A stretch of 48,297 nt of DNA, taken from Patescibacteria group bacterium (GTDB lineage: Bacteria; Patescibacteriota; Patescibacteriia; PEXW01). Below, piece by piece: positions 25,230 to 27,630 of this stretch (positions within the stretch are counted from its first letter, which is position 1; each line of letters opens with the position of its first letter). The DNA is taken from the NCBI GenBank assembly GCA_038065235.1, contig JBBTRK010000004.1:1-48297 (forward strand), given 5' to 3'. The position numbers and the translations under genes were made by a program. The notes under the pieces were generated by a model. The model had not been told where the DNA came from, did no database searches, and was given only the letters and a program-made list of their open reading frames with translations.

Positions 25230-25275
25230 GACGTATTGAGTAAAGTGAACACCACGTCTAATGATGTTCACTAGT

Positions 25276-25883
25276 GCCAACGCTAACTGATAAGCCGAAT
25301 TCTGTGCGCAGCACCCCGAGCGAGGCCTTACGGCCGAGTCGAGGGGTACGCGACGACTATCTCTCTAGGACGTACATTGCTGCACGCCTCTTGCAGCCAA
25401 CCCGCCCTGAACCATTCGCCTTGCGGCTTAGGTACAGGGCCTACTTGGCCTTGCACCGGAGAGGGTTTACCACAGGCTGCATCACTGCAGACCCGCGTGA
25501 GCTCTTACTTCACCCCGCACCCGTAAGCACGAGGTTATCCCCTCACCATTACTGTTGCCAATAGTGGTGCGGGGCTCACGATTTCAACCTTACCTGAACC
25601 TCTTGCGAGGCCATCGGCGGTATATTTTCTGTTGCACTGGCCCTAGGCTTGGTCCATCCAAAAACTCGCGAGGACTCTTTGGATGTCTTACTCCCGGTTG
25701 CCGTTAGCAACTCTCCATGACCTCGTTTCTTAGCTTCGGCTGGTAAACCTACGAAAGTATTTCGAGGGCTTGCCGGCCGAAGCCTTGGCGTAGGTCGGTG
25801 TTCGGACTTTCCTCCCTAACACCCGAGCCTCGCTGTAAAGCGAGAAGCGAGTGGTTTAGGGCAGTCGTCTTGTTAACGTAGGC
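25276..25883 (-). ncRNA. rnpB: RNase P RNA (type A), expanded
   Basis: Minus-strand GGAGGAAAGTCCGAAC, GTGCAACAGAAA, GGTAAACCC..CCGGTGCAAGGCCAA and ACAGAATTCGGCTTAT; P1 helix GCCTACGTTAAC/GTTAGCGTTGGC. Confidence 0.95.
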
Positions 25884-25944: not shown

Positions 25945-26083
25945 AATTACCACCCCGTCTCGGTCTGATGACCACGACACCCCTCCTCAATCGAGGAGGG
26001 GAGGCATACTTTTCTAGGCTTGACTCCCCTCCTTAACTAAGGAGGGGTGACCACGAGCCCAACGAGTGGGCGGGGTGGTAATT
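25945..26083. repeat. REP/MITE-like element related to the DUF559-flanking hairpins
   Basis: Terminal IR aattaccacccc/ggggtggtaatt with two internal cccctcct..aggagggg hairpins. Confidence 0.8.
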
Positions 26084-26149
26084 GTATGTTATGCCAAACG
26101 CCGTTACGTCCTTAGGTATTGGCAGACTCCTTATTGATTTCCAGAATTC

Positions 26150-26444
26150 TGGTGGGCGGAGAAGGGATCGAACCTTCGAAGGCGCAAGGCCAGCAGATTT
26201 TCCGGCAGAGCCGGATCCGCCCTCTGGCGGAACAGTCCAGCTCATGGAACTCTAGAAGACTGGTGGGCGGAGAAGGGATCGAACCTTCGAAGGCGCAAGG
26301 CCAGCAGATTTACAGTCTGCCCCGTTTGACCACTTCGGTATCCGCCCACCAGTCTTCTAGAAATGAAGTTGCCCCGTTTGTCCGGGGCGCTTCCGATGGG
26401 TCGCGCCCGTTCCGCAAGTGCGGAACCCACTTCGGTATCCGCCC
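26150..26444 (-). pseudogene. Outer tRNA-Tyr copy interrupted by three insertions
   Basis: Pieces 26425-26444, 26370-26380, 26232-26237 and 26150-26200 concatenate to the inner tRNA-Tyr sequence plus 1 nt in the D-loop. Confidence 0.8.
26261..26347 (-). tRNA. tRNA-Tyr (GTA)
   Basis: GGGCGGA acceptor stem, anticodon arm GCAGA-CTGTAAA-TCTGC, long variable arm, GGTTCGATCC, encoded CCA. Confidence 0.97.
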
Positions 26445-26472
26445 AGAGCTTTCGCAGGTTAACAGGTATTAA

Positions 26473-27630
26473 TTATTCTTTCAACTTTACGCGGAAGAAC
26501 TGCCTTTTGCCTTTTTGATAAATGCCTGGCTTCACTTCTTCCCATGGATTCCTTACGACATTCTGCTCATATTTAATCGCACCCTGTTCAATAAGATTCT
26601 TTGATGCAGTCCCACTTACAGTTAAATGTTGACTTAACATACCAGATACGGTTGTACCTTTTGCAATCGTAATGACTTCAACGTCACTGGGAATCTGTTT
26701 TTTTACATGTACGTTATCAAAATGCTCTACCGATTTTTCCGCGGCTTGTACGCCATAGAACTCCTCCACGATTGCAGTTGCGAGCTTTACCTTTGCACCA
26801 CGCGGCTCTTTCGGTTCAAAGAAATCTTTCGAATCAAGATCCGTGAGCAACTCAGCGTAATTCGGCATTGCGCTATCGGGCAGAGACATAATCTTCCCAA
26901 ACATCTCTTCCGGCGTGTCGAGAAGCCGAATGGCGTTCCCGAGCGTCTTACTCATCTTCTCCTTACCGTCTGTCCCCACGAGCAAGCGCATGCTCATCAC
27001 CTGCTGCGGCTTCTGGCCGAAGAACTCTTGCAAGGGCCGCGCCTGCAGTTCATTGAATGTTTGATCTGTCCCAATCACCGTCACATCAGACTTGAGCATA
27101 ACGGAATCGTAGGCTTGGAGTACTGGGTACACGGGCTCGTGCAAGCCAATAGTTTCTCCAGCTTTCATTCGCTTGTCGAACATATCTCTCTCCAGCATTC
27201 GCGCCACAGTGAAGTTACTCATGATCTTGAGTAACTCTTCAGCCTTCATGTTCTCATACCATTCGCTGTTGCGACGAACCTCGAGCTTCTTCTTATCTAA
27301 GATACGACCAACCTGATCAATGTACGACTGTGCTGCTTCCTCCACCTCCGCTTTCGTTCGGAGGTTGCGGGACTTTGCCTTATCCGTAGGGTCGCCAAAA
27401 CGCGCCGTGAAGTCACCGACCAAGAAAATTACTGTGTGTCCCATGTCCTGAAACTGCCGAAGTTTACGATAAATGACTGCATGGCCAAGGTGTAAATCTG
27501 GCTTAGTCGGGTCAACCCCGTGCTTAATCCGGAGCTTCTTCCCGCTCTTCAAGAGTTGTTCTAAGTCCTTCCTTACAATGAGGTCAGCCACGCCCCGAGT
27601 GAGCAAATCTGCAGGATTATTTTTTAGCAT
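26473..27630 (-). CDS. tyrS: Tyrosine--tRNA ligase
   Basis: GVDPTKPDLHLGH, YPVLQAYD, GTDQ, KMSKT, C-terminal S4-like domain. Confidence 0.98.
   Translation of the reverse strand: MLKNNPADLLTRGVADLIVRKDLEQLLKSGKKLRIKHGVDPTKPDLHLGHAVIYRKLRQFQDMGHTVIFLVGDFTARFGDPTDKAKSRNLRTKAEVEEAAQSYIDQVGRILDKKKLEVRRNSEWYENMKAEELLKIMSNFTVARMLERDMFDKRMKAGETIGLHEPVYPVLQAYDSVMLKSDVTVIGTDQTFNELQARPLQEFFGQKPQQVMSMRLLVGTDGKEKMSKTLGNAIRLLDTPEEMFGKIMSLPDSAMPNYAELLTDLDSKDFFEPKEPRGAKVKLATAIVEEFYGVQAAEKSVEHFDNVHVKKQIPSDVEVITIAKGTTVSGMLSQHLTVSGTASKNLIEQGAIKYEQNVVRNPWEEVKPGIYQKGKRQFFRVKLKE

Follow-up and report, generated by a model that had tools for sequence, protein, structure and literature searches.

Mobile elements that settle in essential genes usually spare their target. 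Introns and inteins splice themselves out, and integrative elements reconstitute one end of the interrupted gene. At the locus described here, the element appears instead to bring a complete spare gene and to leave the old gene behind as a shell. The locus lies at positions 26150–26444, on the minus strand, of contig JBBTRK010000004.1 (assembly GCA_038065235.1), of which positions 1 to 48,297 were analysed and are referred to as the window; the source organism is a very small groundwater bacterium of the Patescibacteria group (PEXW01 in the GTDB lineage). It consists of an intact tRNA-Tyr gene nested within a second, triply interrupted copy of tRNA-Tyr, and is probably the relic of a homing cassette of the GIY-YIG nuclease type that carried a replacement tRNA-Tyr.

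The closest described system is SegB of phages T4 and T6, a free-standing GIY-YIG homing endonuclease from a cluster of tRNA genes. It is reported to be linked to tRNA genes and to cut within them at a T-arm motif, to be transmitted along with the tRNA genes next to it, and to bring about recombination-dependent amplification of a tRNA-Tyr segment (PMC2330249; PMC13096335). The elements considered here resemble SegB in having a GIY-YIG gene among tRNA genes of the same strand, and the co-conversion of flanks that would be expected of such a system appears at the tRNA-Ser(GCT) locus of the window's own genome. They differ in that SegB is a phage protein with extra domains, whereas the present open reading frames (ORFs) encode bare domains of 80–88 amino acids in bacterial chromosomes, are nearest to UPF0213 and Slx1, and match SegE_GIY-YIG weakly and below the cut-off in only one of the four tested. 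The present cassette, in addition, sits inside the cognate tRNA gene with a full replacement, and the activity of the present ORFs is predicted from sequence. In those parts of a 2006 survey of GIY-YIG proteins that are accessible, the minimal Slx1-like domain is listed as lacking auxiliary domains, and tRNA appears only via a methyltransferase fusion (PMC1564403). No earlier description of such nested tRNA/GIY-YIG elements was found in the accessible text of that survey or in the literature searched, whose coverage leaves out most subscription journals.

Among archaea (Thermoproteales, Caldivirga and Asgard), multi-intron, split and permuted tRNA genes as well as transposing tRNA introns resemble the present locus, as far as the available text goes, in holding several non-canonical insertions per gene and in the recurrence of one insert type at the same position of different tRNAs (PMC10714607). 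The archaeal interrupted genes are, however, sole copies that are spliced by EndA at a bulge-helix-bulge and ligated by RtcB, whereas the present system has an intact copy in every case, and a search for these three features found none of them. Within the same bacterial radiation, rRNA genes of the candidate phyla radiation carry mobile insertions and introns, some of them with homing endonucleases, and the inserts are reported in the accessible text to be missing from mature rRNA (PMC11270868; PMC10714607). In both cases structural RNA genes are invaded, but here the target is a tRNA, and function would be maintained via a replacement copy rather than by removal of the insert.

Integrative elements bounded by attL and attR also insert into tRNA genes and restore a working gene through a carried copy of the displaced part; they duplicate one end of the gene and bring an integrase, whereas here a whole 87-nt gene with 45 nt of flanks lies in mid-gene and the associated gene encodes a nuclease. 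Palindromic repeats that insert into genes are known as the Rickettsia palindromic elements and as REP/BIME sequences. Two of the three inserts in the outer copy similarly belong to dispersed families of short palindromes, one of which (type A) is also found in reading frames. These are much shorter than the Rickettsia elements, half of them lie in or next to tRNA sequences, and no Y1 transposase (RAYT or IS200/IS605; PF01797) was found in the window's genome.

Anatomy of the nested tRNA-Tyr locus

The window's own genome (G000) is an 895 kb draft of 21 contigs, 93% complete, and its contigs are denoted C5, C6, C7 and so on. The inner gene, tRNA-Tyr(GTA), occupies 26347..26261 on the minus strand (26261..26347; 87 nt, CCA encoded), is recognised by both ARAGORN and Rfam (RF00005, 58.6 bits) and is the sole tRNA-Tyr among the 45 tRNA genes that ARAGORN finds in G000. 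The nested locus lies directly after tyrS, the gene for tyrosine--tRNA ligase (26473..27630, minus strand; TIGR00234, 294.9 bits against a cut-off of 113.8; PF00579), which marks the resident tRNA-Tyr site.

The outer copy surrounds the inner gene in four pieces, which are separated by three inserts, all on the minus strand. Piece 1 (26425..26444) comprises the acceptor 5′ strand, the D-stem and the start of the D-loop with an extra G, and contains an 18-nt exact match to inner positions 1–18. The D-loop is then interrupted by insert 1 (26381..26424, 44 nt). Piece 2 (26370..26380), an 11-nt exact match to inner positions 20–30, runs from the end of the D-arm to anticodon-stem position 29, and insert 2 (26238..26369, 132 nt) is located between tRNA positions 29 and 30. 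Piece 3 (26232..26237), which is read from the sequence and required by the joined tRNA, consists of positions 30–35, comprising the end of the anticodon stem followed by C32, U33, G34 and U35. Insert 3 (26201..26231, 31 nt) falls between anticodon positions 35 and 36, and piece 4 (26150..26200), a 51-nt exact match to inner positions 37–87, extends from A36 through the anticodon-stem 3′ strand, variable arm, T-arm and acceptor 3′ strand to the CCA. The flanks are thereby joined to the inner gene, in order, by exact repeats of 52 nt (26149–26200 = 26260–26311), 19 nt (26427–26445 = 26330–26348) and 11 nt (26370–26380). Joining the four pieces by their coordinates (26444..26425, 26380..26370, 26237..26232 and 26200..26150) yields an 88-nt tRNA-Tyr(GTA) that ARAGORN calls and whose single difference from the inner gene is the extra G in the D-loop.

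Both insert 1 and insert 3 form a pair of tandem hairpins (−23.6 and −19.9 kcal/mol respectively), are fully self-paired, and start with TCCG and end with CGGA; insert 1 is of a type referred to as B, with a conserved loop in its second hairpin, and insert 3 is of type A. Insert 2, the cassette, consists of the intact tRNA-Tyr, preceded by 22 nt of leader and followed by 23 nt of trailer, and contains no ORF. Fourteen leader bases are fully paired with the ACCA and 10 trailer bases, which together with the acceptor stem forms a 21-bp helix. Its 5′ arm (26341..26361; the acceptor 5′ strand preceded by 14 nt of leader) and 3′ arm (26251..26271; acceptor 3′ strand, ACCA and 10 nt of trailer) constitute an inverted repeat (I3) of 100% complementarity, with 14 of 14 extension pairs. 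Homologous cassettes are present in six related genomes (G004, G006, G007, G009, G010 and G011). No promoter-like site was found in front of the inner tRNA and one such site was found upstream of tyrS, in a scan whose promoter and terminator counts were at the level of shuffled sequence. Coordinates, ARAGORN calls and folds all agree with the anatomy proposed in the first-pass annotation of this DNA, including the extra D-loop base, the TCCG...CGGA ends and the position right after tyrS.

The nested locus is not a misassembly, a concern that the same annotation had raised. Contigs with 0 differences from three DNA runs of three studies cover 25978–26178, 26171–26289 and 26282/26288/26311–26700, and leave no junction outside the 52-nt repeat unbridged. 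That repeat is itself about twice as deep as its neighbours (28.7 versus 13–20, 64.1 versus 30–38 and 28.5 versus 12–13 in the three runs) and the piece between the two repeat copies is at single depth, in agreement with one path: flank, repeat, middle, repeat, flank. One metatranscriptome (X15) contained only diverged tRNA-like contigs and one contig with 0 differences within tyrS (26550–26700).

Resident and incoming copies in related genomes

The locus was searched against 41 related genomes and gave matches in 33, including all 11 of the same family. Tyr loci were fetched from 10 of these 11, G002 being left out as its match lies on a very short contig, and were compared with those of G000 and of G029, a genome from another family, giving 12 loci, each with an intact tRNA-Tyr. 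Extra tRNA-Tyr pieces are found beside the intact gene in nine of the 10 same-family genomes: on both sides in G003, G004, G006, G007, G010 and G011, upstream only in G009, and downstream only in G001 and G005, where the copies are tandem and not nested. There are no extra pieces in G008, and G029 has a plain gene. A plain tRNA-Tyr following tyrS, which represents the empty site, is seen in G001 and G008.

The spacer between the tyrS stop codon and the outer 5′ piece of G000 recurs in G001, G003 and G009, and as it leads to an intact tRNA-Tyr in G001, the outer copy is the resident gene and the inner copy the incoming one. A hallmark of the incoming copy is leader–trailer pairing beyond the acceptor stem: within the first 14 positions, 12–14 are paired in G000, G004, G006, G007, G009, G010 and G011, compared with just 4–6 in G001, G003, G005, G008 and G029. 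The sequence of this extended helix varies among genomes whilst its pairing is conserved; the leaders can be aligned across 14 nt among G004, G006, G009 and G011, and that of G000 is more diverged. Outer and inner acceptor alleles differ in G006 and G010, in opposite combinations. The outer pieces of G000, G003, G004 and G007 have 0 mismatches to their own inner copy and 1–7 to the copies of other genomes, an identity more readily accounted for by gene conversion among neighbouring repeats, or by homing in the recent past.

Extended helices are also found elsewhere in G000, where at least seven of the 45 tRNA genes (Tyr, Phe, Ile-GAT, His, Ser-GCT, Pro-TGG and Ala-CGC) have 11–16 leader–trailer pairs that extend the acceptor stem and cover the encoded CCA; these may be genes that were replaced by cassettes. 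A further nested gene, tRNA-Ala(GGC) at C6:81690-81940, is intact, has a 15-bp leader–trailer helix and lies in the D-stem of a badly decayed outer copy, which holds a hairpin insert of its own.

A GIY-YIG nuclease gene beside the cassette in relatives

The main addition to what had been noted before is the link to GIY-YIG genes. In G009, tyrS is followed by resident positions 1–34, a double hairpin, positions 35–41, an 80-aa ORF and the helix-flanked intact tRNA-Tyr, with the stop codon of the ORF located inside the cassette leader. The ORF encodes a bare GIY-YIG catalytic domain (PF01541, 56.1 bits), for which the closest solved structures are the UPF0213 protein 1zg2, of unknown function (E = 1e-3), and, weakly, SLX1. 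The G011 counterpart of this ORF contains in-frame stops and a frame shift that disrupt it; there, the cassette is followed by the resident 3′ piece (positions 29–87, with hairpins).

In G000 itself there are nine GIY-YIG matches in open frames of 83–137 aa and one more in a 639-aa frame. Four of the nine abut tRNA sequence: one runs right up to tRNA-Ser(GCT), two have their ends within tRNA-Glu 5′ sequences and the fourth lies after tRNA-Pro(TGG). The first of these has the complete nested layout on C7, with a resident tRNA-Ser(GCT) 5′ piece with a D-loop hairpin (~9114-9058), the GIY-YIG ORF (9048-8803, 54.9 bits), the intact tRNA-Ser(GCT) with its extended helix (8801-8708) and a resident 3′ piece with hairpins (~8690-8523). 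The congeners G001 and G004 share the upstream flank and then have one plain tRNA-Ser(GCT), from which the inner gene of G000 differs at 11 of 94 positions. An inner allele that differs from the resident one, lies beside an ORF and faces empty sites in congeners argues that the incomer arrived together with the ORF. The outer 3′ piece is a mosaic, resident-like in the T-arm and acceptor and incomer-like in the variable arm (3 versus 6 mismatches, 73 nt); conversion closest to the incomer is as expected of break repair from a cassette-bearing donor, and is seen at this one locus only. With the tRNA-Glu loci of G000, an endonuclease ORF is associated with nested tRNAs in the G009 cassette, in G011 (where it is broken) and at two kinds of locus in G000.

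The tRNA fragments of G000 were scored in a screen of tRNA-gene neighbourhoods. At C18:19980-20720, two diverged tandem GIY-YIG ORFs each follow a hairpin-interrupted tRNA-Glu(TTC) 5′ fragment; the stop codon of each falls within the next tRNA 5′ sequence, and an intact tRNA-Glu comes after both.

The association extends well beyond this family. A scan of one genome per species, with the single G009 ORF as query and therefore covering one subfamily, gave 56 loci from Patescibacteria, Ignavibacteria, Bacteroidota and other phyla. A tRNA gene lies within 1.5 kb in 49 of the 56, and all 60 of these tRNAs are on the strand of the ORF; five of the seven loci without a tRNA have less than 160 nt of contig upstream of the ORF. 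An extra exact match of at least 16 nt to the neighbouring tRNA is present in 35 of the 49 loci, compared with 6 of 490 controls, which used tRNAs of other isotypes from other loci. Two layouts were seen among the examples inspected. In the first, found at two candidate-phylum loci, a 5′ fragment that ends near position 38–41 and often carries hairpins is followed by the ORF and then by the intact gene; in the second (Flavobacterium, Bacteroidales), the intact gene and the ORF are followed by a degenerate copy or an array of fragments. Three Bacteroidota loci, L066 (843-1351), L060 (726-1300) and L041 (790-1132), have tandem arrays of 5–8 truncated tRNA 5′ fragments before the intact tRNA and GIY-YIG ORF, some of them with a palindrome in place of the anticodon arm.

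Proposed origin of the locus

In the history that probably best accounts for these observations, the resident tRNA-Tyr gene beside tyrS, now the outer copy, would have been split when a small mobile cassette entered its anticodon stem between positions 29 and 30, and the intact tRNA-Tyr of the cassette would have taken over as the working gene. In its complete form the cassette would consist of an 80-aa minimal Slx1-like (UPF0213) GIY-YIG gene followed by a helix-flanked tRNA. The predicted nuclease would act as a homing endonuclease that cuts cassette-free cognate tRNA genes, and repair of the break would copy in the cassette together with part of its flanks. The nuclease gene would later have been lost from the Tyr locus of G000; loss is the usual fate of homing endonuclease genes. 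Two palindromic hairpin families would then have colonised the dead outer pieces, whilst gene conversion kept these the same as the inner gene. Most likely the cassette preceded the hairpins, because a hairpin in a single-copy tRNA gene should be lethal. The first-pass annotation had offered a tRNA-carrying element that rescued an already disrupted gene; the element within the resident gene is borne out, and the order of events was probably the reverse.

A broader proposal, which is put forward tentatively and could well prove wrong, is that minimal Slx1-like (UPF0213) GIY-YIG genes form a widespread, previously undescribed class of homing elements inside tRNA genes, which carry a full or partial replacement of their target in place of a self-splicing intron and leave nested or fragmented tRNAs as footprints. 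A structure-specific nuclease may, in part, rely on the extended acceptor helix and the hairpin repeats to find or mark its target. If the homing reading holds, a very common bacterial protein family whose function is unknown would gain a role that can be tested, the tRNA fragments and arrays beside minimal GIY-YIG genes in several phyla would be accounted for, and there would be a route for the exchange of tRNA alleles between lineages with very small genomes. For annotation, tRNA finders report the inner gene only, and nested loci therefore escape notice.

Several points weigh against a homing origin. No GIY-YIG ORF or recognisable remnant was found in the Tyr locus of the window, and the 14-nt leader of G000 is only loosely like the ORF-linked leaders; descent of this cassette from an ORF-bearing one is argued from its position, the helix hallmark and the relatives. 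The ORF is a bare catalytic domain without a DNA-binding domain, so that site-specific cutting is putative, and the intact inner tRNA retains any target located within the tRNA, which leaves the carrier's escape from self-cutting unexplained. The outer pieces with 0 mismatches in G000, G003, G004 and G007 require either added gene conversion or a local origin, and in G003 the intact gene is flanked by pieces on either side, yet has no extended helix. Finally, the same hairpin-bearing arm is found on both sides of the cassette at the Ser locus of G000 and the Tyr locus of G011, which simple insertion does not explain; one possibility is that a structure-specific nuclease would make a staggered cut at the base of a cruciform.

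Alternative explanations

Some of these points would be accommodated by local duplication without a homing element, in which a break or replication error at hairpin-rich DNA copied tRNA-Tyr and its flanks into itself and the GIY-YIG genes are bystanders or general structure-specific nucleases. Outer and inner copies that are identical in four genomes, the lack of an ORF at the window's locus and the tandem copies of G001 and G005 are all consistent with such an event, as is the similarity of the flanks, the inner trailer being like the outer trailer at 16 of 23 positions (repeat D1) and the inner leader 85% paired with the outer trailer (repeat I2). Local copying is nevertheless an unlikely source of the different outer and inner alleles in G006 and G010, of an inner tRNA-Ser(GCT) that departs from the resident allele of congeners and comes with an ORF, or of a helix hallmark that accompanies the inner copy in seven genomes, and as a whole it is judged improbable.

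Much less probable is that the outer copy is a working, multiply interrupted gene from which the inserts, including the inner tRNA, are removed and the pieces ligated, in the manner of multi-intron tRNAs in archaea. In its favour, joining the outer pieces yields a perfect tRNA-Tyr, inserts 1 and 3 form compact hairpins whose ends match, one hairpin type occupies an identical D-loop or anticodon position in several tRNA copies, and the RNase P RNA of the window also has large expansions. However, neither EndA (PF01974) nor RtcB (PF01139) has a match in G000, at its 93% completeness, and for all three inserts, by eye, the first insert bases are not complementary to the first bases of the next exon, as a bulge-helix-bulge would need. 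Between 25200 and 26500, Rfam at E <= 1 gave only tRNA, RNase P and two weak matches at chance level, with no intron family and no group I core, and ARAGORN with introns allowed added no tRNA (45 with, 45 without). An intact copy is present at 12 of 12 loci and stands beside every interrupted one, and the outer copies of relatives have decayed, with the anticodon lost in G004 and the T-arm in G006, G003 and G010. Removal of the inserts at the RNA level, which the first-pass annotation had considered, is therefore unlikely.

It is also hardly credible that an integrative element of the integrase type once occupied the locus and, on its deletion, left an attL/attR scar. Duplications of the 3′ end only do occur in G000, 100–240 nt downstream of tRNA-Lys(TTT) and tRNA-Ala(TGC). 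At the Tyr locus, by contrast, a complete gene is surrounded by duplicates of both gene halves, as had been pointed out from the sequence at the outset, and the insert is 132 nt; the sole tyrosine recombinase (PF00589) is on another contig (C6:43683-44219), and no integrase-bearing element was seen between outer pieces at 29/30 in the 12 Tyr loci. Least probable of all is an assembly artefact in which repeats were collapsed or mis-joined, to which the 52-nt exact repeat and the 21-contig draft might lend themselves, as the junction-bridging contigs and depths described above are joined by independent assemblies of relatives with the same layout.

Hairpin repeat families

Insert 3 belongs to a family of 30–31-nt double palindromes (type A), of which 23 elements are listed in G000, mostly with TT on one side and CA on the other. 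Hairpin units of the CCGGC type number 29 in G000, compared with 0.8 expected from shuffles, and 15 of the 29 lie within 300 nt of an intact tRNA gene, neighbourhoods that make up 3.4% of the genome; the earlier suggestion that these hairpin elements favour tRNA genes thus holds. Type A elements are found between anticodon positions 35 and 36 in three tRNA copies, namely Tyr, a Glu remnant and a Ser(TGA) remnant. Type B (insert 1) interrupts the D-loop at an identical position in the tRNA-Val(CAC) and tRNA-Val(TAC) remnants, and its second hairpin recurs on five other contigs (C5:13600-13635, C6:46356-46379, C7:26578-26606, C13 and C20) and in relatives. For the reason of lethality given above, the hairpins most likely entered once a spare tRNA copy existed.

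The type A palindrome is also present inside long stop-free frames of 212–468 codons in G000 (C5:39894, C8:2940, C9:28614, C9:28860, C11:30763, C20:30914, C21:11846, C21:12194 and C21:30140). There it is read in a fixed frame as decapeptides rich in Gly, Ser and Ala, five copies as (P/S)G.AGSG.(A/T)G and three as PA.GGSA.GG, which suggests in-frame insertions that would be tolerated as Gly/Ser/Ala linkers. A different hairpin of ~30 nt, with the stem TGAACC/GGTTCA, directly follows the CCA of several tRNA genes in G000 (C10:28457, C11:257, C14:34290, C14:37237 and C6:46240) and may be a terminator or a processing signal.

Neighbouring features and other tRNA genes

Downstream of the tRNA locus, at 25275-25880 on the minus strand, is the RNase P RNA (bacterial class A, 150.8 bits). 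It is 606 nt long, compared with a model of 367 positions; two stretches of 9 and 7 in the model are expanded to 126 and 73 nt, there are several smaller expansions, and none of them matches the type A or type B hairpins. Between it and the tRNA locus lies a mosaic of hairpin modules (25945-26083), delimited by the arms of a perfect 13-bp inverted repeat (25945-25957 / 26071-26083). A paralogous mosaic is found at C7:26540-26650, where the first module is directly joined to a type B hairpin. A contig joint from 25978 to 26381, which skips 402 nt, was considered as a spliced form and rejected, as it also occurs in DNA runs and matches the C7 mosaic. A T-box or other regulatory RNA linked to tyrS was likewise rejected, the locus being downstream of tyrS and Rfam giving no match.

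The tyrosine recombinase gene of C6 ends ~100 nt before tRNA-Arg(TCT). Three further tRNA genes of G000 were called by ARAGORN as a tRNA with a CTA anticodon, labelled Pyl (C8:1463-1535), a second tRNA-Trp(CCA) (C17:10775-10848) and a tRNA with a TAT anticodon (C20:13675-13750). The first two have no encoded CCA, whereas most other tRNA genes of G000 encode it, and all three may be foreign or suppressor tRNAs.

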